DNA of 64,000 nt. It comes from an uncultured Actinomycetota bacterium (GTDB lineage Bacteria > Actinomycetota > Actinomycetes > Propionibacteriales > Nocardioidaceae). The translations under genes and the position numbers were made by a program. Positions within the stretch are counted from its first letter, which is position 1. The number at the start of each line of letters is the position of its first letter. This document shows positions 37,489-51,935 of this stretch, one piece after another. The notes beneath the pieces were generated by a model. That model made no database searches, was not told the DNA's origin, and saw only the letters and a program-made list of their open reading frames with translations. The DNA lies in contig CAWIAY010000002.1 of NCBI GenBank assembly GCA_963834315.1, positions 4,730 through 68,729 on the forward strand. The letters run 5' to 3'.

Positions 37489-38733
37489 ATGAGCGACGTG
37501 GCAGCGGACCCTTCGACGGGCTCAGGACGACGCGGGCGCGAGCAGGTCGTCGTCGGGGTCGGGGACGGCGCTGCCGGGTTCGCCGGCCACGACCGCGGCG
37601 GCAGCACGCCGGGCGGGCTGGCCACGCAGGACATGGTGCTCAACATCGGCCCGCAGCACCCCGCCACCCACGGTGTCCTCCGGCTCAAGATCACCCTCGA
37701 CGGCGAGCGGATCGTCGACTGCGACCCGATCGTGGGCTACATGCACCGCGGCGTGGAGAAGCTCTTCGAGGTCCGCGACTACCGGCAGATCATCGTCCTG
37801 GCCAACCGACACGACTGGCTCTCGGCGTTCTCCAGCGAGCTCGGCGTCGTGCTCGCGGTCGAGCGGATGCTGGGCATGGAGGTGCCGCAGCGAGCCGTGT
37901 GGCTCCGCACGATGCTCGCCGAGCTCAACCGGGTGCTCAACCACCTGATGTTCCTGGGCTCCTACCCCATCGAGCTCGGGGCGATCACGCCGATCTTCTA
38001 CGCCTTCCGCGAGCGCGAGACGCTCCAGGCGGTGATGGAGGAGATCTCCGGCGGCCGGATGCACTACATGTTCAACCGCGTCGGTGGCCTCAAGGAGGAC
38101 ATCCCGGCCGGCTGGCTGGACCGCGTCGAGGACGCAGCCACGGCCGTGCGCACGCGGATGCCCCAGCTGGAGGACCTGATCTTCGGCAACGACATCTTCC
38201 GGGCCCGGACCAGGGGCGTCGGCGTGCTCTCGCCGGAGCTCATCGACGCCTACGGTGTGAGCGGCCCGATCGCCCGCGCGTCGGGGGTGGACTTCGACCT
38301 GCGACGCGACGAGCCCTACCTCGCCTACCCCGAGCTCGTCGCCGACGGCGTGATGCAGGTCGTCACCCAGGAGGAGGGCGACTGCTACGCACGGTTCGGG
38401 ATGCTGCTCGACCAGGTGCAGGTCTCCCTCGACCTCGTGGAGGCGTGCGTGGACCGGCTGCGTTCCCTGGACCGCGGACCGGTGAACGTCCGGCTGCCCA
38501 AGATCCTCAAGGCCCCCGAGGGCGCGACCTACGCCTGGACCGAGAACCCGCTGGGCGTCAACGGCTACTACCTCGTCTCCCGGGGCGAGAAGACGCCGTG
38601 GCGGATGAAGCTGCGCAGCGCCTCGTTCAACAACATCGCGGTCCTTCCCGAGGTGCTCAACGGGTGCGTCGTCGCCGACATGGTGGCCATCCTCGGCTCG
38701 ATGTTCTTCGTCGTCGGCGACATCGACAAGTGA
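37489..38733 (+). CDS. nuoD: Stand-alone NADH-quinone oxidoreductase subunit D paralog (NuoD2-like)
   Basis: [69 protein letters not shown]. No other nuo genes nearby and no NiFe CxxC motifs. Confidence 0.9.
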
Positions 38734-38776
38734 CGGCCCCGCACGCCGAGCTTGCTCGGGTGCGGACGAGGCCGTC

Positions 38777-39040
38777 AGGTTGAGGAGCGGGGCTCCCGCC
38801 GAGCCTGCGAGGTGAGCAGCGCGTCTCGCGGCCGAGCCTCGCGAGGACGCGAACGGGGCGGGAGGTTGAGGAGCCGGACTGCGACCGAGCCCGCGAGGGC
38901 GCAGCCCAGGCGTCTCGAAACCCCTGCCTGCCCCGAACCGCACGTATCAATCGCCCGGAGGCACGTCTCAACTCCCCGGAGGCACGTCTGAACATGGCTG
39001 GGGGCCGAGCCTGCGAGGGGGAGCACCGCGTCTCGAAACC
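38777..39040 (+). repeat. Cluster of REP-like intergenic repeats
   Basis: AGGTTGAGGAG x2 (about 38777, 38863), CCGAGCCYGCGAGG x3 plus one variant, GCGTCTCG(AAACC) x3, and CCCGGAGGCACGTCT x2 (38954, 38975). Confidence 0.7.
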
Positions 39041-39067
39041 ACCCCGGCCCCCGGTATCGTGCAGCCC

Positions 39068-40135
39068 ATGTCCCCTGAGCCCGACCACGCCGCCACGGCG
39101 GGTGCCCGCAAGCTCGTGATCGTGACCGGGTCGGGCCGCAGCGGGACCAGCACGGTGACCGGCAGCCTGAAGATGCTCGGCTGCTACATCCCGCAACCGG
39201 AGATCCCCGCGAACGAAGCCAACCCCCGCGGCTACTTCGAGCCCACCTGGACCGTCGAGTTCCAGAAGCGGGTCCTCGCCGACGCCGGCGTGCGCACCCT
39301 CGACGCGCGCCCCGAGGCCTACGAGCTGATGCAGCCGACGTGTGCCAAGGCGTCGTTCCAGGACGAGCTCAGCGCCTGGTTCGCCACCCAGCTCGAGGGC
39401 CAGCAGATCGTGGTGAAGGACCCGCGCTCGTTCTGGCTGCGCAACCTGTGGGTCCCCACCGTCGCCGGCCTCGGCGTCGACACCGTCTTCTTGACCATGC
39501 TGCGCCACCCGGCCGAGGTGGTGGGCTCGCGCGACATGCACTACCTGAAGAACGCCGACGACGACCGTCGGCTGGCGCGCGAGACCGGCAACCTCGGTGG
39601 CTGGGTCAACGTGGCCCTGACGAACGAGCGGGTCGGGCGCGAGAGCCCCAGGACCTTCGTGCACTACACCGACATGATCAGTGACTGGCGTTCCGCGATG
39701 CGCGAGGTCGGGGACAAGCTCGGGCTGTCGTACGACGCCGACCTCAGCGGTGACGCGCACCACCCGATCGACGACTTCATCGACTCCAGCCTCCACCGCT
39801 CCCAGGTGGGCTTCGACGACCTCGACGTGCCCGCTCAGCTCGTCGAGATCGCTGCCACGGTGTGGGAGAACCTCGACGCCCTGGCTCGGGACCCCTACGA
39901 CGAGGCCGCCATGAAGAGCAACGACGAGATGCGCGAGGCCTACGGCCAGCTGCACACCTACTCCGTCGCCCTCAGCCAGGACCACACCAACTACTCCGTC
40001 GACGTGGCTCGGGCGCAGGCCCGCCGCCGCGTCACCCGGGAGCTCCAGCAGCAGGCCCCGGCGGCCGTGTCCTCGCTGCCACGGCGCGTCGTGCGCAAGG
40101 TCCGGTCGCTGGCCCACCGGAGAGCATCACGATGA
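39068..40135 (+). CDS. Sulfotransferase-like P-loop protein
   Basis: IVTGSGRSGTSTVTG, NPRGYFEP, VVKDPR, MLRHPAEVVGS, FVHYTDMISDW. Leaderless TATCGT-N7-ATG; ATGA overlap with the next gene. Confidence 0.75.
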   Translation: MSPEPDHAATAGARKLVIVTGSGRSGTSTVTGSLKMLGCYIPQPEIPANEANPRGYFEPTWTVEFQKRVLADAGVRTLDARPEAYELMQPTCAKASFQDELSAWFATQLEGQQIVVKDPRSFWLRNLWVPTVAGLGVDTVFLTMLRHPAEVVGSRDMHYLKNADDDRRLARETGNLGGWVNVALTNERVGRESPRTFVHYTDMISDWRSAMREVGDKLGLSYDADLSGDAHHPIDDFIDSSLHRSQVGFDDLDVPAQLVEIAATVWENLDALARDPYDEAAMKSNDEMREAYGQLHTYSVALSQDHTNYSVDVARAQARRRVTRELQQQAPAAVSSLPRRVVRKVRSLAHRRASR

Positions 40136-42765
40136 CCGACCCGCAGGTCCCCAGTGTCACCGGGACGGTGCGCCAGCGGCTCGCCCTGCGCACCCGGGCC
40201 CGCGCCGCCCGTGAGGCGGTCACGTCCGCTCGCTACGCGCGCTGGCGCGAGCGGCCCGTGGCGCCGCGGACGGTGATGTACGAGTCCTTCTCCGGCAACG
40301 GGATGCTCGACAACCCCGAGGCCATCTTCCGGCACCTGCTGACCCAGCCGGACATGAGCGACCTGCAGCACATCTGGGTCCTCGACGACCCGGCGAAGCA
40401 TCCCGAGGTGCTCGAGGAGTTCGCCGACAACCCGCAGGTGAGCTTCGTCAAGATCCTCTCCGACGGCTACTTCAAGGCCCTGGCGACGTCGCAGTACCTC
40501 GTCAACAACGCGACCTTCCCCCAGCAGCTGGCCAAGCGCCCCGAGCAGACCTACCTCAACACCTGGCACGGGATCCCCCTCAAGCACATGGGATTCGACC
40601 TGCCCGGTGGCGGCGCGCTCTCGCGCAACGTCATCCGCAACTTCCTGCAGACCGACTTCGCGATCAGCGCCTGCGGGTTCATGACCGAGACGATGTACCG
40701 GCGCGCCTACCGACTCCAGGGGATCTTCCGCGGAGCCGTGATCGAGGAGGGGCACCCGCGCACCGACCGTCAGGTCGAGGCGGTCAAGGATCCCACTGCC
40801 GTGATGGAGCTGCTCGAGGAGCGCGGCTGCCGGATCGACGGCCGTCACGTCGTGCTCTTCGCGCCGACCTGGCGCGGTGACTCCTTCCAGGACCCGCGGG
40901 TCAACGCCGGGCAGCTGCTGGCGACGGTCAAGGACCTCCAGAAGTCCCTCGACCCGACGACCCACGTGGTGCTGCTGAAGGTCCACCAGGCCGTCTACGA
41001 CGCGGTCAAGCAGCGCGTGGGCGAGTGTGACTTCCTGGTCCCCAACAGCGTCCCGACCAACCAGACCCTGGCCGTCGCCGACCTCCTCGTCACCGACTAC
41101 TCCTCGATCTTCTTCGACTTCCTCGCCACCGGGAGGCCGGTGGTGCACTACGTCCCCGACCTCGACGACTACCGGTCGGGGCGCGGGCTCTACCTGGACG
41201 AGACCGACCTTCCCGGCCCGGTCTGCGCGACCATGCCCGAGCTCGTCGAGGCCGTCGGTGCCGGCCTGGCCGCGGGCCCCGCCGACCGGTCTGCCGAGCT
41301 CGCCCAGGTCTACAACCCCAAGGACGACGGGTCGGTCTGCGAGCGGGTCGTCGACATCGTGTTCCGTGGACACGAGGACCCCTACACGGTCCACCGTGAC
41401 TTCGGCACCGACAAGGAGACGCTGCTGGTCTACCTCGGCAGCCTCAAGACGCAGGGCATCACCACCTCGGCGCTCAACCTGCTGCGCAACCTCGACTACG
41501 ACAAGTACGACGTGACCGCGTTCTACACCTTCTCCAAGGGTCGTGACCGACTCAAGAACGCTGCCCTCGTGGACCAACGCGCGCGCGTCATCCCCCGGGC
41601 GATCCAGTTCAACGGTTCGCCGGCGCGCGTGCGCCGCGAGACCAAGAAGCTGATGGAGCACGGCCTGCCCGAGCAGCTCAGCGCCGATCACGTGAGGTTC
41701 TGGACCGACGAGTGGCAGCGGGTCTTCGGGCACGCCCGGTTCGACCACCTGATCGACTTCAGCGGCTACGGCTGCTACTCGCCCTTCCTGTTCTCGGTGA
41801 CCGAGGCCAAGCACAAGTCGATCTGGCTGCACAACGACATGTACGCCGACATGCAGCGTGAGACGGTCGGCGAGAAGCATCTCGAGGACCGGTTGCAGGC
41901 CGTGTTCACGACGTACAAGTACTTCGACCACCTCGTCTCCGTCTCACCTGCACTCGAGGCCATCAACCGGACCTCCCTCGCCGCCTTCGCACCGCCGGAC
42001 CGGTTCACTCATGCGGTGAACACCATCGACGGGGACCGGATCCTCCAGCTGTCCGGCCTGACTGCGGCGCAGGCAGCCGCCAAGGCCGACGGTGAGGACG
42101 TCGGGTCCGTCCGGCCCCGCGACCTGGTCGAGATCGACCCGACCAACCTCACCTCCACGATGTCCGTCCTGCTGGAGCACTTCGCTGTGGAGGACGTGCT
42201 CCGCGAGGCTCGTGGGCGGCTGCGGCTGGCCAACCAGCCGGCCGCCACGGCGGGCACCGTCACCTTCGTGACGATCGGCCGGCTCTCGCCGCCGAAGAAC
42301 CACACCCGGATGATCAAGGCCTTCGCCAAGGTCCACGAGCGCAACCCGCACATCCGGCTGGTGATCATGGGCTACGGACCGCTCGAGCAGGACCTGCAGA
42401 CCCTCATCAACAGTCTGGGCATGGAGTCGGCGATCACCCTCGCCGGACTCGTCGACAACCCCTACGCGATCCTCGCCCAGAGTGACTGCTTCGTGCTGTC
42501 GAGCGACTACGAGGGTCAACCCATGGTGATCCTCGAGGCGCGGACCCTGGGGCTCCCCGTCGTCACCACGGCGTTCTCCTCGGTCAGCGATGCCGTCCCC
42601 GACACCGCGGGACTCGTCGTCCCCCAGTCGGTCAAGGGCGTGGCGAGCGGGTTGCAGGCCTTCCTCGACGGCTCGGTCCCGGCCGAGGTCCTCGACACCG
42701 TCGACTACAACACGCTGGCCATGCGCCAGTTCGACGCCGCGATCCACCATCGCCCCGGCGGCTGA
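40132..42765 (+). CDS. Bifunctional CDP-glycerol glycerophosphotransferase (TagF-like) / GT4 glycosyltransferase
   Basis: NTWHGIPLK, GHPRTD, FAPTWRG, KVHQ, TDYSSIFFD. C-terminal TIGRLSPPKNH, SDYEGQPMVILEA. Confidence 0.88.
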   Translation: MTDPQVPSVTGTVRQRLALRTRARAAREAVTSARYARWRERPVAPRTVMYESFSGNGMLDNPEAIFRHLLTQPDMSDLQHIWVLDDPAKHPEVLEEFADNPQVSFVKILSDGYFKALATSQYLVNNATFPQQLAKRPEQTYLNTWHGIPLKHMGFDLPGGGALSRNVIRNFLQTDFAISACGFMTETMYRRAYRLQGIFRGAVIEEGHPRTDRQVEAVKDPTAVMELLEERGCRIDGRHVVLFAPTWRGDSFQDPRVNAGQLLATVKDLQKSLDPTTHVVLLKVHQAVYDAVKQRVGECDFLVPNSVPTNQTLAVADLLVTDYSSIFFDFLATGRPVVHYVPDLDDYRSGRGLYLDETDLPGPVCATMPELVEAVGAGLAAGPADRSAELAQVYNPKDDGSVCERVVDIVFRGHEDPYTVHRDFGTDKETLLVYLGSLKTQGITTSALNLLRNLDYDKYDVTAFYTFSKGRDRLKNAALVDQRARVIPRAIQFNGSPARVRRETKKLMEHGLPEQLSADHVRFWTDEWQRVFGHARFDHLIDFSGYGCYSPFLFSVTEAKHKSIWLHNDMYADMQRETVGEKHLEDRLQAVFTTYKYFDHLVSVSPALEAINRTSLAAFAPPDRFTHAVNTIDGDRILQLSGLTAAQAAAKADGEDVGSVRPRDLVEIDPTNLTSTMSVLLEHFAVEDVLREARGRLRLANQPAATAGTVTFVTIGRLSPPKNHTRMIKAFAKVHERNPHIRLVIMGYGPLEQDLQTLINSLGMESAITLAGLVDNPYAILAQSDCFVLSSDYEGQPMVILEARTLGLPVVTTAFSSVSDAVPDTAGLVVPQSVKGVASGLQAFLDGSVPAEVLDTVDYNTLAMRQFDAAIHHRPGG

Positions 42766-42778
42766 GCCGCTCAACCCC

Positions 42779-43354
42779 TCAGCGCAGCGGCACGAAGGAG
42801 TAGTGCCCGTGCTTGCTCACCCGCGGCCCCTGCGGCGTCCGGGTGACCCGGAGCATCCGCCCGTCCACCGGCGCCACCAGCACCCCGTCGTCGGCCAGCT
42901 GCGCCACGAGGGCGTCGGGTAGCGCAGCGGCCATCGCCGAGACGAGCACCCTGTCGTACGGCGCCCCAGCGGGCCGTCCGAGCACGTCCTCGTCGGCCTG
43001 CTCGATCCTGGCCCAGGGTCGACCGACCTTCGCCAGGTTCTCCGTCCCGAAGGAGACGAGCACCGGCTCGAGCTCGACCCCGAGCACCTCACCGTCGGGA
43101 CCGACGAGGTCGGCGAGCAGCGCCGTGGTCCACCCGGAGCCGGAGCCGACGTCGAGCACCCGCTGCCCCGGACGCACGTCGAGCAGCCGAAGCATCGCCG
43201 CCACGGTGCGCGGCTGGGAGCAGGTCTGACCGGCCGCGATGCGTACCGGCTGGTCCAGGGCGGCGAGGAAGCGGGCCGACTCGGGCAGGAAGCGCTCACG
43301 CGCTGTCGTCGCCATGGCGGCGGACACGCGGTCGCCGGGCTCCGTCTCGTCCAC
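42779..43354 (-). CDS. pcm: Protein-L-isoaspartate O-methyltransferase-like protein
   Basis: RERFLP, GQTCSQP..VA.ML, VLDVGSGSGWTTALL, APYDRVLVSA, GVLVAPV, YSFVPLR. Confidence 0.85.
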   Translation of the reverse strand: MDETEPGDRVSAAMATTARERFLPESARFLAALDQPVRIAAGQTCSQPRTVAAMLRLLDVRPGQRVLDVGSGSGWTTALLADLVGPDGEVLGVELEPVLVSFGTENLAKVGRPWARIEQADEDVLGRPAGAPYDRVLVSAMAAALPDALVAQLADDGVLVAPVDGRMLRVTRTPQGPRVSKHGHYSFVPLR

Positions 43355-43449
43355 AACTCCGAGTCAAGCACCGGGCCGGGGCGGGCGCACCTCGGCAGGG
43401 CGGCCACGTGGTGGTCAGGGGGTCGGGCGACCCGGAGGGCGGCGCCGGA

Positions 43450-46400
43450 TCAGGTCCACTCCGCGGCGACGACCCGCTCTGCGGCCCGGCCGTCGTCGAG
43501 CGGCAACAGCTGTTCAGCGAGGCTCCGTCGACCCTCGTAGACCGTGTCGAGGCCGTCAACCAACCACGGCACCAGCTCCTCGGTGCTCTCGGCGACGGGT
43601 CCCGGGGGCGTCCGGGTCACCTCGAGGAAGAAGCCGACGTCCTCGAACTCCTCGCGGTCGGGCAGGAAGAGGCCCACGGGCGTGTCCGAGGCGAGCACGT
43701 CGACCAGCAGCGAGGAGTAGTCGGTGACCACTGCATCGGCGGCGAGCACCAGGTCGGAGAGCTCGGGGTAGAGCGTCACGTCGAGCATCCCCGACTCCGG
43801 CGCGAGCACCTGACGGTTGGCGCTGTTGGGGTGTCCACGCAGCAGCACCGTGAGTCCGGGCACTGCCTCCTGCAGGACAGGTACGTCGATGTCGACCACC
43901 TTGGCGCGTCGCGTGTGCGCGCGGATCGCCTGGCGGGTGGTGGGCGCGACCAGCAGCACCGGTCCGTCGTCCAGCCCCAGCCGGCGGCGTACGTCGGCAG
44001 CACGCGCCTCCCGGCCCGCGGCCCGGTAGGCGTCCACGGCAGGATGCCCGACCTCGCGCACCTCGCCGGCGAACCCGGTGGCCTCCCGCATCCACGCCGT
44101 CGCCTGCGCGCTGCCGGTGTAGAGCACGTCCCAGGCCGCCACGTCGCTGTCGAGGCCGCGGATGCCTGCCGGACCGACGCCACCCGCCTCGACCGCGTGC
44201 CCGAACCGCAGCAGCGGAGTCCCGGACCACAGCTGAACCAACCGCTGACCCGGCGCCTTCTCGAAGATCCGGGGCATCGTCTGGTTGGTCAGCACGTGCG
44301 ATGCGGTGGCGAGGTGGTCGAACCAGTCCGCCGACTGGCGGAGCACCGGGGTGGTGCCCGATGGTACCGGGAGGCTCTCGTCCCGCAACGCCCAGACCAC
44401 CTCGAGATCGGGTCGCTGGTCGCACAGCGCCCGGACGACCGCTCCGCAGCCGTGCAGGAAGCCGCGCCCGACGAACGAGTCCACCAGGACCACGGGTCGC
44501 CGAGCCGCGGTCCGGCCGGTGGCATAGCGCCCACGGCGGAGCACCTCTTGACCGTGCCTGGTGTGGGTCTCGGTCTCGCTGCCGCGACTGCGCTCCAGGA
44601 CGAGCACGTTCCCCTCGCCGGCCCGCAACGACCACTGCGCGGACCCTGACGGCGCGTCCGCGGCGACGAGGGACGGGGGCGCCACCACCTCGCGTCCCTC
44701 CCCAGCCATCACGGTGTAGAGATCCCGGGGAAGCGGGAGCGCAGCATCGTCGAGAGGCGAGGCCCGGGTCAGCGGGATGGCGGCCGTCCAACGGCCGGAC
44801 TCGACCGTCAGTGGCAGCGCGGCCCGGAACCTCGGTCCCACCAGGGCCAGCTCATCCGGTGCGGAGCCCACCAGCGTTCCCGAGAGGACCAGCTCCTCGG
44901 GACCGAGCGTGACCTCCTCCGCCTCGAGCAGCCCCGGCAACGAGGACACGCGCACGAACCCGTCGGTGGCCAGCAGCACCCCCCGGTCGCCGGGGAGCCG
45001 GGTGACGCCGAGGTAGCCCAGGGTCACCAACGGTTGCGTGGTGTCGTCGCCGGTGTCGACCTGGATCCGCCGACCGGCGAGGGAGGTGACCGCGTGCGGT
45101 ACGTCGAGAAGGACGCGCCAGGTCGACGCGTCCGGGTCCACCTGACGCACCTCCCCGGCCGGCTCGTCCTGCACCCGCAGCGCCTGCGGGGTGATGCCGG
45201 GCGCGGAGCGCAACAACAGGACGAGACCGTCGGGGTCCGACTCCCACCCGGTCAGGACCACCCAGTCGCGCCGCACCGTCACCGTGACCCCCAGCCGGTC
45301 CGACCAGCCGGCCTCGAGGAGTGCGTCTCCGGACAGCCGTCGTTGCGGCACGAGCGCCGAGCCGTGCTCCGCACGCTGGCTGAACACGGAGTCCCGCGTG
45401 CTGCCGAGCGCCGTGCACTCGACGCGGGTCTGCCACACGGTGCGCGCGCCGGTCGACCGCTCCACCAGGTCCTCGATCGGCACCTCGGCCACGAAGCCGT
45501 CGCCGCGGTGGTCCTCGTAGTGGCGGTCGGCGAAGACGTTGGCGTCCTCGACTCGCAGCCCCCGGGTCGACACCCGCAGGAGCTCTCCCCCGGCCCTTCG
45601 TCGGAGGGTCAGCGTGACCTCGTGCGCATGGTCTGAGTCGACGTAGCGCGTCAGCCCCACCCCCCGCACCCGCAGCGCCGCGTCGTCCCAGCCGAGGTCG
45701 TCGAGCCTGGCCTCCACCAGCAGGTCCTTGTCGCCGACGACCAGCAGCTCCGGCGGGATGTCCTGCGGGAGTCCGAGAGCCTCGGTGTCCGCCACCAGGC
45801 CGAGTCCTTCGGCGCGCACCGGGATGTTGCCGGAGAGCAACGGCGACTCCAGGAGCCGGGTCAGCGTCTCCCTGCCGCCGTGGACCAGCGCCCAGGCCGC
45901 CAGCCGATGACGTAGGTCGACGTTGACCCACGCCTCGGCAGGTGCTCCGTCGAGGACGCGGGAGACGGTCTCGACCAGCGTGGCGTAGTAGTCGTCGTCG
46001 GCATCGAGGCTCGCGCGGATGTAGGCAAAGAGGTCGAACTCGAAGACCTTGCCGTACCAGCCCTGCAGCACCGCGGGACTGCCGCTCTCCCGCACCATCG
46101 TGGCCACCTCGTTGACGGCGAGCAGCCGGTCGGCGAGGTCGTCCTTGCGCGCCTTCTGCTGGGTGATGGACGAGCCGTCGCGGCGCGACCGCCACCGATA
46201 GACGATGTCGGGCAGGATGTCGAACCCGCGGGCCCTCAAGTAGGCGCGGGTGATCGGCACCTGGTCCTCGTAGCGCACTCCGACCGGGAAGCGCAGCCCG
46301 ATCTCGTCGACGAAGGCGCGCCGGAACACCTTGGTGCAGGCGAAGACGTTGGCCATCGCCTCCGGCGCCTCCTCCAGTCGGACGTCGCGCCGGAGCACCT

Positions 46401-46929
46401 GGTGGAGTCGCCGCGACCACGGCTTCTGCACGTAGGTGGTCGCGCTCTGCTGTCGCTCCAGAGCGCCGACGGAGAAGTCCGAGCCGCTTGCCCGCAGGCT
46501 GCGCACGTGCCGTGCGATGGCGTAGTCGGGCAGGGTGTCGTCGGAGTCGACGAAGGTGATCAGCTCGCCGCGTGCCTCGTCGATGCCCCGGTTGCGAGCT
46601 GCCCCCAGCCCGGCGTTGGCCTGTCGCACGATCCTGATCCGGTGGTCGCGGGCGGCGTACCGCTCGACGATGGCCATGGAGCCGTCCGGCGACCCGTCGT
46701 CGACGACGACGACGTCGAGGTGCGGATAGGTCTGACCGAGGATCGAGTCCAGACAGTCCTCGATCCACTCCTCGACGGCGTACACCGGGACGACGACCGA
46801 GACCGTCGGCTCTCCGGAGACAGCCGGGTGGCTCGGCGGGGCGGACTCTGCCCGGGCGGGCTCGCCGCGGGCGCGCAGGCGCGAGACCAGTCGTCCGGCC
46901 AGTCGACGTGGCGCGCCCGGCTCCTCCAC
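43450..46929 (-). CDS. GT2 (intact) + linker domains + degenerate TagF-like domain
   Basis: VVPVY..VDDGSPD..AARNRG..FVDSDD..YEDQVP. TagF-like part reads QLWSGTP, GHPAVD, VAPTTR, TDYSS. Start placed at GTG 46929 after GAAAGGGAG; the ORF track start is 46965. Confidence 0.82.
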   Translation of the reverse strand: MEEPGAPRRLAGRLVSRLRARGEPARAESAPPSHPAVSGEPTVSVVVPVYAVEEWIEDCLDSILGQTYPHLDVVVVDDGSPDGSMAIVERYAARDHRIRIVRQANAGLGAARNRGIDEARGELITFVDSDDTLPDYAIARHVRSLRASGSDFSVGALERQQSATTYVQKPWSRRLHQVLRRDVRLEEAPEAMANVFACTKVFRRAFVDEIGLRFPVGVRYEDQVPITRAYLRARGFDILPDIVYRWRSRRDGSSITQQKARKDDLADRLLAVNEVATMVRESGSPAVLQGWYGKVFEFDLFAYIRASLDADDDYYATLVETVSRVLDGAPAEAWVNVDLRHRLAAWALVHGGRETLTRLLESPLLSGNIPVRAEGLGLVADTEALGLPQDIPPELLVVGDKDLLVEARLDDLGWDDAALRVRGVGLTRYVDSDHAHEVTLTLRRRAGGELLRVSTRGLRVEDANVFADRHYEDHRGDGFVAEVPIEDLVERSTGARTVWQTRVECTALGSTRDSVFSQRAEHGSALVPQRRLSGDALLEAGWSDRLGVTVTVRRDWVVLTGWESDPDGLVLLLRSAPGITPQALRVQDEPAGEVRQVDPDASTWRVLLDVPHAVTSLAGRRIQVDTGDDTTQPLVTLGYLGVTRLPGDRGVLLATDGFVRVSSLPGLLEAEEVTLGPEELVLSGTLVGSAPDELALVGPRFRAALPLTVESGRWTAAIPLTRASPLDDAALPLPRDLYTVMAGEGREVVAPPSLVAADAPSGSAQWSLRAGEGNVLVLERSRGSETETHTRHGQEVLRRGRYATGRTAARRPVVLVDSFVGRGFLHGCGAVVRALCDQRPDLEVVWALRDESLPVPSGTTPVLRQSADWFDHLATASHVLTNQTMPRIFEKAPGQRLVQLWSGTPLLRFGHAVEAGGVGPAGIRGLDSDVAAWDVLYTGSAQATAWMREATGFAGEVREVGHPAVDAYRAAGREARAADVRRRLGLDDGPVLLVAPTTRQAIRAHTRRAKVVDIDVPVLQEAVPGLTVLLRGHPNSANRQVLAPESGMLDVTLYPELSDLVLAADAVVTDYSSLLVDVLASDTPVGLFLPDREEFEDVGFFLEVTRTPPGPVAESTEELVPWLVDGLDTVYEGRRSLAEQLLPLDDGRAAERVVAAEWT

Positions 46930-47009
46930 TCGAGCTCCCTTTCGTGGACCCTCATGAACTGCCACGGCAGCCTATCGAGTCGCCTCGCGGGGACCGCAGC
47001 CCCGTCGCC

Positions 47010-50000
47010 TCAGATCTGGGAGAGCAACCAGTCCACGGCGCGCACGGAGGCCCGCCCGTCGTCCCAGGGGTTGAACCTCGCCCGGAGGTCGGCACGCGCC
47101 CCCGCATGGACGTCCTCCGCCGTCAGGGCCGCGGCCACCTCGTCGGTGTCGGCAACCATCGGGCCCGGCGCCGCCTCCTCGAGGTCGAAGTAGAAGCCGC
47201 GCTCCACGTCGCGGTACTGCTCGAGGTCGGGAACGAGGAGCAGCTGTGGCTTGTCGGTGAGCGCGAAGTCGAACATGACCGAGGAGTAGTCGGTGACGAG
47301 GACGTCGGCGACGAGGTACAGGTCCGCGATGTCGGGGTAGCGGGTGACGTCCCGGATCCGCGCGTGGTCGATGAAGACATCGGCCTGGTGGGTGCTGTTG
47401 TAGTGGCCCCGCACGAGGACCACGGCGTCGGGCACCGAGCCGATCAGGGCCGGTGCATCGAGGTAGAGCGGCTTGGCGTCGCGCACCCCGACGTACTCCC
47501 GCCACGTCGGGGCGTACAGCACGACGCGGTCGCTGTCGCTCAGCCCGAGCCGGGCACGCACCCGGGTGCGTACGACGTCGGCGCGTGTCGGGTCGAGGAG
47601 CACGTCGTTGCGGGGGTAGCCCACCTCCAGGAACCGCCCATCGAAGCGGAACGCGCTTCGGAAGTGCTCGGAGCAGAACGGACTCGGCGAGATCATCGCG
47701 TCCCAGCCCGCTGCCTGGAGAGCCATCCGGCGTCGATGCCGCCAGGTTGCGAAGTCGCCGGGCCCGCGATCCTCCCCGATCCGCTTGAGAGGGGTGCCGT
47801 GCCAGGTCTGCAGGTGGATCTGTCCGGTCCTCTTCTGCCACCAGTGCGGCGCGCCGGCATTGCTGACGAGCACCCGCGCCCGCGCGAGGGCGTCGTACCA
47901 CCGTTCGGAGCGACGGGGCAGCGCGCGCGTGCCCTCAGGCACGACGACGCTCGGATCGTCCACCACCCAGGCGAGGTCGAGGTCCAGCCCGCGAGCCATG
48001 ATCTCCCGCCCGATGGCCCCCGGACTGTCGCCCACGGAGCGTCCGCGGAACGTCTCCAGGAGCACCAGCGGCGAGGAGGACGTGCCGGGTGCGGCGTAGA
48101 CACCGCTCTGCAGCCGCTGCTGGTCGTAGGCGCTCCGCTCGTCGTGGCCCAGCGGAGCCGACACCGTCAGCGTCGGGCCCTCGCTCGAGTCGGACCTGAC
48201 CACTCGCAGGCGCTCCCCGATCAGCTCGCCCTGGGGGGATGCGGCGTCCCAGACCGCCTCCACCGCTGCGTAGCCGGAGGCAGCGGCCTGCTCGACCTGG
48301 ACCACGTAGCGCCCCGCCGGCAACAGCACGCTGCTGCCGAAGAGGTCCGTGACCAGGGGAAGACGCACCGTCCACGAGCCCGGCACACCCTCGGTCGGTA
48401 AAGGGACCGCGGCGGCGGCACCCTTGGTGCCGGCGAGTCGCACCGAGGCCGGCACGCTCGCGGACCCGGCGCCGGTGAGCACCAGCACCGGTTCCGCGCC
48501 GGAGTCGTCCAGCTCGACCGCGCGCAGGGTCGCCACGTCGTCCGGCGGCGGCGTCGTGATCGCCACCTCGTGAGAGCCGGCGCGCCGTCCGAGGTGCACG
48601 TCGACTCGCCAGGGACCGTCGGGTCCCCCCGGTTCGAGCCCGGGTTCGAGTCGCGCGGTGAAACCGACGTCGGCGCGATCCTCCCAGGCCCGTCGCGCCC
48701 ACAGGTTGAGGTCGGGGTCGGCCCGGGGCTGCACGTGCATCGGCACCTGCCGCCCGTCCGGGGAGGCGAGCGTGACCGAGGGCGGGGTCGCTCGCTCGCC
48801 GTACTCCACGAAGGCGGCGCCGTTGATGCGGAGGCTGCCGGTGTCGTCGCGGCGCATCGTCCCCACCACCGTCCGGAGGACCCGGTCGACCTGCTCGATC
48901 CGGCGCACTGCGTCGGGAACGGGAACAGCGAGGCCGGCCGGGAGCCGGACCACCTGGGCGCCCTCGGCCGAGCGCTCGCAGGGCAACCCGTGCGGGTTGT
49001 CGGCCAGCAGGTCCTGCATGAGCGCGAGGTCGTGCAGCGAACCTTGCGAGGCCCGGCTCAGCATCCGGGCAGCGACCGGGACGTCGGCCAGCGCTCCCGG
49101 CCCGGTGTCCGCGACGAGGTCGCGCACCAGAGGGGAGAGCAGCTCGAGGGTGCGCTGGCCGCCGCCGATGGTGTCGACGAGCAACCCGGGCAGCACATGC
49201 GTCAGGGTCAGGACCAGCCACCGTCGGTAGATCGCGGGGTCCGTCGCGGCCACGAGCCGCGCCACCTGCCGCAGTGCGCCGACCCGAGCCGCCACCACGG
49301 AGGGACGGAAGCGGGCTTGTTCATCGACCGGGAGGGACGCATCCCGCGCGTGCACGACGTACGCCGGACCGGGAACCACCTCGAAGCTGGTGGAGGCCAG
49401 CAGCATCCGGACCGCCGGCACCTCGCGGGCCGTCCAGTCGGCGACGGACTCACCGACGGCGCGCCAGGCCTGGGTGCGGAAGAGCGATCCGACCAAGTCG
49501 GCGCCGACGACCGCGTCGGGACACGACCCCAGGGTCTGCACGGAGAGCCGCCCGGCGAAGAGGGTGCCGACCCACGGACGTGGCCGGATCACCCCACCCC
49601 GCGCCGTCGCGACCGGTCCGAGCGCCAGCTGCGAGTCCGATGTCTCCAGGGCCTGGACCAACGACCCCAGGGCACCGGGCTCGACCACGTCATCGGCGTC
49701 CGCGAAGGCGAGGTAGGTCCCCCTGGCCGCGGCCACGGCCCCGTCGACGCCGGCTCCGTCCAGCGGCAACGCGCGCACGCGTCGATCCGTCGACCGCGCG
49801 GCAGCAGCGGCTCGCTCGGCAGCGGGGTCCAACGGCGCCAGCAACACCTCGACCTTGTCGTGGCCGGCGTCGAGGAAGGACGCGACGCAAGCGTCGAGGA
49901 AGTTCGCCGGTCCGTGCACCGCGACGACGACGCTCACGACCGGGCCGGTCGCAGTCCACTGAGTGCGGGCACGCTCGGCGGTTCGCGCCGCTCGGCGGCG

Positions 50001-50054
50001 CAGGGGACCCAGCAGACTCGTCGCGGAACGTCGGACTCGGCTCACGCCGGTCAT
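47010..50054 (-). CDS. Degenerate GT2 + linker domains + intact TagF-like CDP-glycerol glycerophosphotransferase
   Basis: QTWHGTPLKRIG, GYPRND, YAPTWRE, RGHY, TDYSSVMFD are intact. The N-terminal GT2 lacks DDGS, RN.G and ED motifs. Confidence 0.84.
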   Translation of the reverse strand: MTGVSRVRRSATSLLGPLRRRAARTAERARTQWTATGPVVSVVVAVHGPANFLDACVASFLDAGHDKVEVLLAPLDPAAERAAAAARSTDRRVRALPLDGAGVDGAVAAARGTYLAFADADDVVEPGALGSLVQALETSDSQLALGPVATARGGVIRPRPWVGTLFAGRLSVQTLGSCPDAVVGADLVGSLFRTQAWRAVGESVADWTAREVPAVRMLLASTSFEVVPGPAYVVHARDASLPVDEQARFRPSVVAARVGALRQVARLVAATDPAIYRRWLVLTLTHVLPGLLVDTIGGGQRTLELLSPLVRDLVADTGPGALADVPVAARMLSRASQGSLHDLALMQDLLADNPHGLPCERSAEGAQVVRLPAGLAVPVPDAVRRIEQVDRVLRTVVGTMRRDDTGSLRINGAAFVEYGERATPPSVTLASPDGRQVPMHVQPRADPDLNLWARRAWEDRADVGFTARLEPGLEPGGPDGPWRVDVHLGRRAGSHEVAITTPPPDDVATLRAVELDDSGAEPVLVLTGAGSASVPASVRLAGTKGAAAAVPLPTEGVPGSWTVRLPLVTDLFGSSVLLPAGRYVVQVEQAAASGYAAVEAVWDAASPQGELIGERLRVVRSDSSEGPTLTVSAPLGHDERSAYDQQRLQSGVYAAPGTSSSPLVLLETFRGRSVGDSPGAIGREIMARGLDLDLAWVVDDPSVVVPEGTRALPRRSERWYDALARARVLVSNAGAPHWWQKRTGQIHLQTWHGTPLKRIGEDRGPGDFATWRHRRRMALQAAGWDAMISPSPFCSEHFRSAFRFDGRFLEVGYPRNDVLLDPTRADVVRTRVRARLGLSDSDRVVLYAPTWREYVGVRDAKPLYLDAPALIGSVPDAVVLVRGHYNSTHQADVFIDHARIRDVTRYPDIADLYLVADVLVTDYSSVMFDFALTDKPQLLLVPDLEQYRDVERGFYFDLEEAAPGPMVADTDEVAAALTAEDVHAGARADLRARFNPWDDGRASVRAVDWLLSQI

Positions 50055-50067
50055 CCTGACAGCAGCA

Positions 50068-50098
50068 GACGCCCGGGAGCCCTCAGGTCCCGGGCGTC
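50068..50098 (-). terminator. Probable intrinsic terminator after the osmoprotectant ABC operon
   Basis: Perfect 11-bp stem GACGCCCGGGA / TCCCGGGCGTC with a 9-nt loop, 24 bp past the stop at 50122. Confidence 0.7.
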
Positions 50099-50121
50099 CG
50101 CCCATGTCGTGCCTCGCGCGC

Positions 50122-51096
50122 TCAGGCGTCGATCAGTCCCTCGTCGACGAGGTACTGCCGAGCGACGTCGGCCGGGAGCTCCCGCTCGAGGTCGACCTTG
50201 CCGATCAGCTCGGTCAGGTCCTCTGTGGTGAGACCGGCCGACATCTCGTTGAGCACGTCGGCGATGTCGCCGTGCTCGGCGAGGTAGTCGCTGTTGACCA
50301 TCGGCACCAGGTTCTCCGCGTTCTGGAGCTCCTTGTCGTCCTCCAGGATGACCAGGCCCAGCGTCTCCAGCGTGGCATCGGTGGTGCCCACCTGACCGAG
50401 GACGACCTCGCCCTTCTTGAGCGCGTCCTTGGTGGCCTCGGTGCCGAAGCCGAGCGGCTCGACCTTGGTGATGTCGAGACCGTAGGTCTCCTCGAGCCCG
50501 ACCTTGCACTCGTCCCGCTCGGGGCAGTCCTCTGCGGCAGCGAGCGTGACCGGCTCACCCAGCCCGGCGAGGTCGCTGAGCGTGGTCAGGGAGTTCTCGT
50601 CTGCGAACTCCTGGGTCACCGCGAAGGCGTTGGCGTCCTGGGCCTCGGCGGGCTCGAGCGGCTCGATCCCGGTCGGCTCGGCCAGCGCGCGGAGCTCCTC
50701 GACGGTGGCGTCGGCGTCGTTGGAGGCGACCGGGTCGGCGTCGGGACCATTCGCCTCGGCGTTGAGGTACTCGGTCATCGAGGAGAGGTAGTCGGCCGAG
50801 ACGTCGACGTTGCCCTTCTGCATCTCGGGCGCGTAGACCGCGCGGCTCTCGACCAGCTTGAGGGTCGCGTCGTAGCCGGCGTCCTCGAGGAGCGCCTTGT
50901 AGATCTCGCTCATGATCTGCATCTCGGTGTAGTTCTGACCACCGATCACGACCTTTCCGCCGGCGCTGTCTCCGGAGTCGCCGGAGTCGCCGGAGTCGCC
51001 GCTGAGGGCGTCCTCCCCGGCGCAGGCACTGACGACCAGGAGTGGTGCGACGGCCGCCACCGCGACGAACCGTCGGAACAGGGGTGTCTTGGGCAT
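50122..51096 (-). CDS. Glycine betaine/choline ABC transporter substrate-binding lipoprotein
   Basis: Lipobox LVVSAC, GGQNYTEMQIMSEIY, QDANAFAV, LEDDK..ENLVP. Confidence 0.88.
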   Translation of the reverse strand: MPKTPLFRRFVAVAAVAPLLVVSACAGEDALSGDSGDSGDSGDSAGGKVVIGGQNYTEMQIMSEIYKALLEDAGYDATLKLVESRAVYAPEMQKGNVDVSADYLSSMTEYLNAEANGPDADPVASNDADATVEELRALAEPTGIEPLEPAEAQDANAFAVTQEFADENSLTTLSDLAGLGEPVTLAAAEDCPERDECKVGLEETYGLDITKVEPLGFGTEATKDALKKGEVVLGQVGTTDATLETLGLVILEDDKELQNAENLVPMVNSDYLAEHGDIADVLNEMSAGLTTEDLTELIGKVDLERELPADVARQYLVDEGLIDA

Positions 51097-51197
51097 CTCG
51101 CTCCGCCTTCTGTGTCCCGCGACGCGTGTCGCCGCGCGTGTCCGGCGGGCGCCATGTGCTCGAGCACCCGCTCGTCATCAAGCCTACGTGGGCCCTC

Positions 51198-51935
51198 CTA
51201 CAGCGGCGCCGCGGGCTCCGAGGCGGTCTGGGAACGGATCGGACGCGCCGCCCGGCGGGCCCGGGCGACCGGGTCCACGACCGCCTGGAGCAGCACCAGG
51301 CCGACCTCGAGCAGCAGAGCCACCACGGCGATCACGAGAGCCCCGCCGACGATCTGGGCGATGTCTTGTCGGACGAAGCCGAGCGTCACGATGCGCCCCA
51401 GGCCGGGGCCGGCCACCAACGCGGCGATCGATGCCGTGGCCCACACCTGCACGACGGCGAGCCGGAGTCCGCTCATGATCAGCGGGAGCGCCAGCGGGAG
51501 CTCGACCTGTCGCAGCAGCTGTCCTCCCGCCATGCCCATGCCGCGGGCGGCCTCGACGGTGTCGCGGTCGACCTCGCGCATCCCCACATAGGTGTTCGTG
51601 ACGATCGGGGGTAGCGCGAAGAGCACGAGGGCCACCAGGGTCGCCGCACCGGCGCGACCGTAGGGACCGAAGTACGACGAGCCGATCGGGCCGAGCGCGA
51701 GCAGCAGCAGCACCGCGAAGGTGGGCACGGCCCGCCCCACGTTGGTGATGTTGACCGCGAGCAGCCCGCCCTTGCCGAGGTGGCCGAGCCAGATCGCGAT
51801 CGGCAGCGCGATGGCCGCGGCCACGAGCGTGGCGGTGAGGGTGAGCAGGGTGTGCTCGAGGAGCCGGTTGAGGATGCCGCCCTCCCCCGCCCAGGTGGCC
51901 GGGTCCGAGTACCACTCCCACAACGCGCCGATCAT
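51198..51935 (-). CDS. Osmoprotectant ABC transporter permease
   Basis: RLLEHTLL, GRAVPTFA, LFALPPIV.NTYVG, EAARGMGM EAA loop, GPGLG. Confidence 0.9.
   Translation of the reverse strand: MIGALWEWYSDPATWAGEGGILNRLLEHTLLTLTATLVAAAIALPIAIWLGHLGKGGLLAVNITNVGRAVPTFAVLLLLALGPIGSSYFGPYGRAGAATLVALVLFALPPIVTNTYVGMREVDRDTVEAARGMGMAGGQLLRQVELPLALPLIMSGLRLAVVQVWATASIAALVAGPGLGRIVTLGFVRQDIAQIVGGALVIAVVALLLEVGLVLLQAVVDPVARARRAARPIRSQTASEPAAPL

Follow-up and report, generated by a model that had tools for sequence, protein, structure and literature searches.

Adjacent GT2-TagF paralogs with reciprocal loss of active-site motifs in an uncultured Nocardioidaceae bacterium

In the present study, we analysed a stretch of 64,000 nucleotides (GC content about 70%) from contig CAWIAY010000002.1 of an uncultured, Nocardioides-like soil actinomycete, called the window in this text, and found in it two adjacent minus-strand genes, B1 and B2, that have lost opposite halves of their active-site motifs. 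Judging from the sequences, the two products are paralogs with the same four-part architecture. B1 keeps a perfect set of GT2 glycosyltransferase motifs and has a degenerate TagF-like domain, whereas B2 keeps the TagF motifs and has a degenerate GT2-like domain, and these states are maintained in related genomes. The organism was placed in the Nocardioidaceae, with Nocardioides iriomotensis as the closest named relative in the ortholog comparison. We consider it probable (roughly 0.6) that B2 is a glycerol-phosphate polymerase and B1 a TarS/RmlT-like glycosyltransferase, and that the degenerate domains have structural or binding roles.

Gene organisation and domain layout

Both genes are coding-type open reading frames (ORFs), with a GC content of 0.89-0.90 at third codon positions (GC3). 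A preliminary description of this DNA, made by a model from the letters and ORF translations, had reported the two genes with the motifs that set them apart, and all the strings that it quoted were found in the ORF list and translations. The start it used for B1, GTG at 46929, is also the better-supported one, with a Shine-Dalgarno-like GGGAG at 46939..46935, 5 nt upstream; an alternative GTG lies upstream at 46965. The database protein for B1 (P0001, 1159 amino acids, aa) begins at 46929, and the residue numbers given below for B1 (Ser914, His838, His974, His1045) count from the GTG at 46965. By BLASTP, B1 and B2 are 34% identical in their C-terminal 505 residues and 22% identical in the N-terminal part, and the linker and middle region of B2 is about 140 aa shorter than that of B1. 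The features of the two genes are as follows, where live and degenerate refer to the motifs and the secondary structure is that predicted by AlphaFold2.

43450..46929, minus strand: B1 gene (ORF, translation, Pfam), with live GT2 and degenerate TagF-like domain
46180..46809, minus strand: B1 GT-A (GT2) catalytic domain; PF00535 at 2e-35, with DDGS, RN, DSDD and YED present
45832..46146, minus strand: B1 helical linker, the TarS/RmlT-like region after the GT-A domain; helices 262-366 (P0001 numbering)
44590..45822, minus strand: B1 beta-rich middle of several beta-sandwich modules; strands 371-780, predicted local distance difference test (pLDDT) score mostly above 90
43453..44502, minus strand: B1 TagF-like GT-B domain, predicted to be non-catalytic or remodelled; PF04464 at 2.5e-50
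44224..44226, minus strand: B1 Ser914 codon, at the position of the TagF catalytic base H444; alignment to 3l7i and 3l7j
43831..43833, minus strand: B1 His1045 codon, second histidine, equivalent to TagF H584; alignment to 3l7m, family-invariant
47010..50105, minus strand: B2 gene (ORF, translation, Pfam; protein P0121, 1031 aa), with degenerate GT2-like and live TagF domain
49350..49937, minus strand: B2 GT-A-like pseudo-domain; PF00535 at 38 bits over profile positions 1-118 of 168, without DDGS, RN and ED
48159..49304, minus strand: B2 helical linker and beta-rich middle; helices 268-369, strands 376-649
47013..48071, minus strand: B2 TagF GT-B domain; PF04464 at 2.8e-90, with WHGTPLKR, GYPRND, APTWRE, RGHY and TDYSS
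47799..47801, minus strand: B2 His769 codon, catalytic base equivalent to TagF H444; alignment to the wild-type and H444N chains

Active-site motifs

The translated GT2 domain of B1 contains VVDDGS, ARNRG, DSDD and YEDQVP and matched the Pfam family PF00535 with 122.5 bits (2e-35) over profile positions 1-166 of 168. It also aligned motif by motif with solved GT-A enzymes, among them CgT/GalT1 (5hea, 1e-36) and TarS (6e-20). In B2 the same region reads LLAPLDP and WTAREVP, and the DDGS, RN and ED base are missing; its match to PF00535 was above the cut-off and partial (38.2 bits, 1.8e-9, profile 1-118/168). Because of these states of the nucleotide-binding Asp, the DxD and the xED motif, we class B1 as a full GT2 member and the domain of B2 as a pseudo-domain of GT-A fold.

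The TagF halves are in the reverse situation. B2 reads QTWHGTPLK, GYPRND, YAPTWR and RGHY, while B1 reads LWSGTP, GHPAVD and APTTR at the corresponding sites. Both matched PF04464, B2 with 303.4 bits (2.8e-90) and B1 with 171.9 bits (2.5e-50), the cut-off being 22.1. The columns of the catalytic histidines were set by the structures of Staphylococcus epidermidis TagF in the PDB (3l7i, wild type; 3l7j, H444N; 3l7m, H584A). The invariant H444 activates the acceptor hydroxyl as a base, and the second histidine acts on the leaving group (PMC10901376). B2 has histidine at both columns (His769, and His901 in RGHY); B1 has serine at the first (LWSGTP) and histidine at the second (His1045, in RGHP). 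The codons at 47799..47801 and 44224..44226, to which the preliminary description had pointed as the His and the Ser, are indeed those of B2 His769 and B1 Ser914, and pairwise alignment, Pfam and the mapping onto TagF structures all agree with its claim of GT2-TagF paralogs with reciprocal motif loss. Since B1 is without the first histidine, it belongs to the TagF-like family (PF04464) by fold and homology only, whereas B2 is a full member. Among the nearest TagF-like cluster representatives, 133 of 135 retain both histidines, and the replacement in B1 is no chance feature. It has been described that 'PL' following WHGT marks the use of glycerol rather than ribitol donors (PMC10901376); B2 has WHGTPL, and a glycerol donor is therefore predicted for it. 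The motifs suggest that the two degenerate sites are inactive.

Conservation in related genomes

The preliminary description had noted that a strain-specific loss would speak against its claim. The losses are kept in every ortholog that we compared. All B1 orthologs (n=9, 62-100% identity) have W[S/T]GTP, GHPAxD and APTTR[Q/H] together with perfect GT2 motifs, and position 914 is S or T in 9/9. The full-length B2 orthologs (n=18, down to 45% identity) are all without DDGS, RN and ED and have invariant TagF motifs, and their DxD varies (DADD in the window, and DSAD, DCAD, GADD, SADD and DSTD). When 1.84 billion cluster representatives were searched with the TagF-like domain of B1, the B1 type formed one narrow cluster.

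We also made a census over 99 canonical homologs, in which 51 GT2 and 60 TagF columns reach a conservation of at least 95%. The B1 clade has changed 1 of the GT2 columns, and the B2 clade has changed 29 with 1 fixed, so the GT2 region of B2 has the character of a relaxed pseudo-domain. Of the TagF columns, 2 are changed in the B2 clade and 14 in the B1 clade, where 7 are fixed in 9/9 orthologs. These fixed replacements indicate that the TagF-like domain of B1 has moved to a new conserved residue set, and it may hold a new role rather than none. The changes include H914S/T, K919L, W1010T and loss of the R and N of GYPRND, and two new invariant histidines arose in the clade (D838H and Y974H). 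The nucleotide-side motifs PT.R, RGH and TDYSS are retained. With the sides of the active site placed from descriptions of TarL and TagF, the changes in B1 seem to gather on the acceptor side and in two loops, that of the catalytic base and that of the polyol.

Selection and predicted structure

Four genomes that carry both genes were used to compare the rates of the domains. The live domains are 82% (B1 GT2) and 84% (B2 TagF) identical, and the degenerate ones 71% (B1 TagF-like) and 57% (B2 GT2-like). Pairwise Nei-Gojobori estimates of omega, the ratio of nonsynonymous to synonymous substitution rates, came to about 0.25 and 0.19 in the live domains, while the TagF-like domain of B1 gave about 0.33 and the GT2-like domain of B2 about 0.41; owing to the strong GC3 bias the absolute values are rough, and only the relative order of the domains is used here. 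The degenerate domains change at about twice the rate of the live ones, and with omega of about 0.33-0.41 the constraint on them is relaxed yet clearly purifying.

AlphaFold2 predicted both proteins with confidence, the degenerate domains included (pLDDT 89.3 for B1 and 90.3 for B2; predicted template modelling scores 0.85 and 0.88). The shared architecture is a GT-A domain, a helical linker, a beta-rich region of about 410 aa in B1 and 275 aa in B2, an amphipathic helix and a GT-B domain. The models therefore bear out the long beta-rich middle that the preliminary description had supposed to be common to both proteins. The isolated middle regions had no Pfam matches at E up to 10, and no tetratricopeptide repeat (TPR) array was predicted in either protein.

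In Foldseek searches, the first approximately 650 residues of B1 matched TarS (5tz8, E 2.3e-29 over 619 columns) and RmlT (8bz4, E 1.5e-26 over 676 columns), and its C-terminus matched the TagF structures 3l7i/j/k with template modelling (TM) scores of 0.76-0.78. The best matches of B2 were TagF (TM 0.79-0.83), followed by TarL and TarS. In the sequence alignment, its TagF domain matched 3l7i at 2e-56 and 32% identity.

Gene neighbourhood and history of the losses

The genes of the locus are arranged in the order GNAT, ABC, permease, OpuAC, B2, B1, a variable small gene, a convergent TagF/GT4 fusion gene, a sulfotransferase-like gene and a NuoD-like gene. This order is kept in six genomes, the window and five others, and one further locus is cut by a contig end. 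Within this group the order and orientation of B1 and B2 and their short spacer are kept at 62-78% protein identity.

Genomes of more distant relatives hold earlier combinations. In loci L001 and L004 a GT2-degenerate gene of the B2 type follows a partner with both motif sets; the order is swapped and the two genes overlap. Since genes of this type occur in L001, L004 and L084-L086, the GT2 loss of B2 is old and independent of B1. In neighbour-joining trees, B1 shares a Nocardioidaceae subfamily with the canonical partners of B2; these trees are without support values and the TagF branch of B1 is long, so that B1 may, but need not, be a strict ortholog of those partners. The sequences point to two asymmetric and stepwise losses, that of the B2 GT2 domain being ancient and drift-like and that of the B1 histidine younger and confined to the clade of the window and N. 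iriomotensis. A recent tandem duplication with symmetric subfunctionalisation was rejected on the grounds of the 22-34% identity, the swapped order in L001 and L004, and the solo genes of the B2 type.

Proposed division of labour and alternatives

We propose that B1 and B2 are ancient paralogs of an actinobacterial 'GT-A / linker / beta-sandwich / TagF-like' family, the enzymes of which would be cytoplasmic, membrane-peripheral and engaged in building wall polymers of the teichoic-acid type. B2 would act as a cytidine diphosphate (CDP)-glycerol:glycerol-phosphate transferase and make poly(glycerol-phosphate) from CDP-glycerol, its GT-A domain serving as a folded but catalytically dead structural module. 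B1 would be an inverting GT2 enzyme with a uridine diphosphate (UDP)-sugar donor, like the wall-teichoic-acid-glycosylating TarS and RmlT in its first approximately 650 residues, and its sugar might either be put onto the glycerol-phosphate chain as a side-chain decoration or alternate with glycerol phosphate in the backbone, as in capsule polymerases that make poly(glycosylglycerol-phosphate). The TagF-like domain of B1, which has lost the base histidine, the Lys of the polyol loop and the R and N of GYPRND, would probably bind CDP or cytidine monophosphate (CMP), the polymer or a partner instead of catalysing transfer. A glycosylated poly(glycerol-phosphate) would be the joint product of the pair and the convergent TagF/GT4 gene. 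We infer this cooperation on one polymer, like the substrates.

The degenerate domains probably serve in oligomerisation, positioning or substrate binding. N-terminal domains and Ig-like domains mediate oligomerisation in TarL and TarS (PMC10901376), and effects of non-catalytic presence are known for Cps7A (PMC11666461), and a physical complex of B1 and B2 is plausible. In the capsule polymerases, the two domains fold and act independently and their knock-outs (D133A/D135A and H587A) complement in trans, GT-A-dead and TagF-dead mutants of Cps1B giving wild-type polymer synthesis when mixed (PMC5974469). Because these mutants complement each other, a division of labour of this kind is biochemically workable.

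Several observations weigh against this proposal. The partnership is not obligatory, since genes of the B2 type stand without any GT2-TagF neighbour in L084-L086 (in L084 and L085 beside a TagF/GT4 gene), and a gene of the B1 type (WTGTP) in the metagenome-assembled genome (MAG) L009 has different surroundings, where B2 is missing within 6 kb. The orthologs of B2 and B1 contain several frameshifts in two nanopore-style MAGs (L005, 3969..7053; L010, 4008..10510), which could reflect assembly errors or real decay. No gene for CDP-glycerol synthesis was seen among the window genes scanned. Furthermore, Cps7A has Tyr at the H444 position and is an active Gro3P transferase (PMC11666461), so a missing histidine of this kind is no proof of inactivity. 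Finally, the identity of 71% and the seven fixed replacements, His838 and His974 among them, give the TagF-like domain of B1 the look of a new function rather than of a mere scaffold.

The last two points lead to the main rival explanation, which we regard as rather unlikely. Here the TagF-like domain of B1 has been neofunctionalised, with its site rebuilt around Ser/Thr914, His838 and His974, and would carry out another phosphotransfer or hydrolysis, or sense CDP-glycerol or CMP and so gate the GT2 domain. The fixation of 7 of 14 replaced positions in 9/9 orthologs, D838H and Y974H included, the purifying selection (omega about 0.33), the retained nucleotide-side motifs and the working of Cps7A without the WHG histidine all agree with it. 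However, the catalytic histidine is kept in all but two of the nearest relatives, and its mutation abolishes activity in TagF, TagB, TarL, Cps1B and Cps7D (PMC10901376, PMC5974469); moreover, the polyol-loop Lys and the R and N of GYPRND have been lost too, and residue 914 itself alternates between S and T. The fullest form of this idea, in which the remodelled site is a new phosphotransferase or hydrolase, or senses CDP-glycerol or CMP and so links glycosylation with polymerisation in a B1-B2 hetero-oligomer, is likewise a long shot.

It is less likely again that B1 and B2 work without cooperation in separate polymer pathways and are adjacent because they lie in a glycopolymer gene island. 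The existence of each type without the other fits such a view, as do the TagF-degenerate WRGQP variants described below, which are single genes, and the richness of the locus in other glycosyltransferases. On the other side stand the order, orientation and short spacer kept in six genomes at 62-78% protein identity, the complementarity of the retained activities as read from the motifs, and the linker and beta-sandwich modules shared by the two paralogs, which are oligomerisation modules in TarS and TarL.

We think it very improbable that the GT2-like domain of B2 is active with non-canonical residues and B2 thus bifunctional. The window copy does have a DxD-like DADD, and a GT-A fold is predicted for the domain with confidence, but the DxD is not conserved, DDGS, RN and the ED base are missing in 18/18 orthologs, and the change of 29 of 51 columns with almost no fixation resembles drift. 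That the degenerate domains are functionless remnants heading for deletion is hardly credible: they evolve faster than the live domains, but the frames are full-length and intact in four genomes and the window, omega of 0.33-0.41 is well below 1, pLDDT is about 90, and the degenerate domain of B2 persists through divergence to 45% identity.

Comparison with known systems

From its sequence, the B1/B2 pair appears to be a variant of the known GT-A/TagF-like polymerases of teichoic acids and capsules, in which the natural reciprocal split is what is new. The capsule polymerases Cps1B, Cps12B, CslB and Ccs2 likewise have an N-terminal GT-A domain fused to a C-terminal TagF-like domain (PMC5974469). 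Both sites are live in one chain there, whereas B1 and B2 have one complete motif set per chain; their extra domain is a TPR, in place of the helical linker and beta-sandwiches predicted here; and their hosts differ from the Gram-positive actinomycete that carries B1 and B2. The natural pair resembles a split enzyme that has so far been made only by laboratory mutagenesis, in Cps1B.

S. epidermidis TagF is similar to the C-terminal domain of B2 (32% identity, TM about 0.8, all active-site motifs), and its N-terminal GT-A-like domain aligns with the GT2 domain of B1 (PMC10901376). Unlike B2, it keeps DGS, RN and DxD in that domain, and it has H444, for which B1 has no equivalent. TarS (5tz8) and RmlT (8bz4), which glycosylate polyol-phosphate chains, show the same layout of GT-A domain, helical linker and beta-sandwich as the first approximately 650 residues of B1, but they are without a TagF-like domain and only 14-21% identical to B1. 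A further parallel is the heparan sulfate co-polymerase EXT1-EXT2, a heterodimer of bi-domain paralogs in which the GT47 domain of EXT2 is inactive (bioRxiv 10.1101/2022.06.19.496623). Its state resembles the canonical and B2-like pairs of L001 and L004; however, it is eukaryotic, with unrelated folds and chemistry, and its loss is one-sided whereas that of B1 and B2 is reciprocal. Its physical complex is proven, while that of B1 and B2 is putative. The searchable literature gave no description of natural TagF pseudo-domain pairs, and literature searches gave nothing on teichoic-acid chemistry in Nocardioides.

TagF-like polymerases and TarS-like glycosyltransferases form the core of the synthesis of teichoic acids and teichoic-acid-like capsules, and these enzymes serve as targets of antibiotics and as tools in the production of vaccine antigens. 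The pair described here may serve as a natural system in which to ask what GT-A and TagF-like domains do without catalysis, be it oligomerisation, handling of the polymer, positioning at the membrane or allostery. It is also a clean case, in a bacterium, of paralogs that have degenerated in complementary domains while related genomes keep the intermediate states, and yields a prediction for the wall polymer of this Nocardioides clade. The proposal is directly testable, since the cultured strain N. iriomotensis NBRC 105384 carries the same pair.

Recurrence of degenerate GT2-TagF proteins

Similar states were found elsewhere. N. hankookensis CCUG 54522 (L023, 471..9189) has an independent, divergently transcribed reciprocal pair of another subfamily (FHGYP type): by the motifs, the GT2 domain is dead and the TagF domain live in the minus-strand gene, while the plus-strand gene combines a live GT2 with a TagF-like domain that has neither histidine (RTFSGFP, no RGH). 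In L018 a canonical protein adjoins one with a degenerate GT2 domain. A WRGQP/GSPRND clade, in which the catalytic histidine is replaced by arginine, occurs in the Nocardioidaceae MAGs L003, L011, L013, L014, L015 and L028; its genes are single and stand beside a fol operon, and a further TagF gene is missing within 6-10 kb.

In the window itself, an RgpF protein encoded at 4688..7222 (minus strand) has a degenerate TagF-like tail in which WHG is missing and PTWR and RGH are replaced by VPSFEH and FRDD, respectively. The gene overlapping it (7219..9774, minus strand) has intact TagF motifs (LWHGIPLKR, CPTFRDD, VREH). This region, 4688..9774, is a TagF-like module that reads as dead beside a live paralog, and presumably corresponds to what the preliminary description called Pair A. 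If the remodelled-site explanation of B1 were true, reciprocal degeneration of bi-domain paralogs would be a recurrent actinomycete route to multi-subunit wall-polymer machines, with a count of three (B1/B2, Pair A and N. hankookensis).

In Streptomyces (L033, L035 and L043), where two or three GT2-TagF paralogs lie side by side, every one of them has both motif sets. Actinomycetes commonly have tandem paralogs of this architecture, for which degeneration is one outcome among several. Another protein, P0226 (1088 aa), contains two TagF-like domains in one chain, the second of which reads WTGSP (His to Thr) and GLPSGL; on these motifs it would be an intramolecular pair of a live and a dead TagF-like domain.

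Intergenic region

The space between B2 and B1 contains one conserved element.

46960..46981, minus strand: conserved intergenic block GACTCGATAGGCTGCCGTGGCA, with a -10-like TAGGCT (46974..46969) and the palindrome TGCCnnGGCA

The preliminary description had named this TAGGCT as a candidate -10 element. Its position is confirmed, and although the hexamer alone carries little information, it falls in a block, GACTCGnTAG(G/A)(C/G)TGCCnnGGCA, that is kept in five genomes (the window, L005, L007, L008 and L010). The downstream GGGAGGAAGCTCGAG and the start codon are kept in the same five, and the rest of the B2-B1 spacer varies in sequence and length, from about 45 to 146 nt. The palindrome (46960..46969, minus strand) follows directly after the hexamer and could be an operator. 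In N. iriomotensis the spacer is short and TAGAGT precedes the GTG by six bases, an arrangement like that of leaderless mRNAs in actinobacteria. Because of the footprint of the conserved block, an internal promoter or operator for B1 is supported, and B1 appears to have its own promoter-like element. The further suggestion that the B1:B2 ratio is tuned through it is speculation.

A sigma-70 consensus scan of 42600..51300, with a consensus unsuited to actinomycetes, gave no promoter, and one terminator-like site was at chance level. An Rfam search of 42500..51500 at E up to 1 gave one small-RNA match at chance level and no riboswitch or leader. A search of sequencing runs returned soil-metagenome DNA only and no RNA.

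Neighbouring genes

Between B1 and the TagF/GT4 gene, the window has a gene for a PCMT-type (isoaspartyl) methyltransferase (42779..43354, minus strand). It matched none of the related loci searched, and N. iriomotensis has a DUF5946 gene in its place. The NuoD-like, sulfotransferase-like and TagF/GT4 fusion genes lie at 37489..42765 on the plus strand, and many other glycosyltransferases are encoded in the locus. The NuoD-like gene stands alone (Complex1_49kDa, 414 aa) and is 89-94% identical between the genomes compared; it is a lone homolog of a respiratory-complex-I subunit within a wall-polymer locus. The sulfotransferase-like and TagF/GT4 genes accompany the gene of the B2 type even where B1 is absent.

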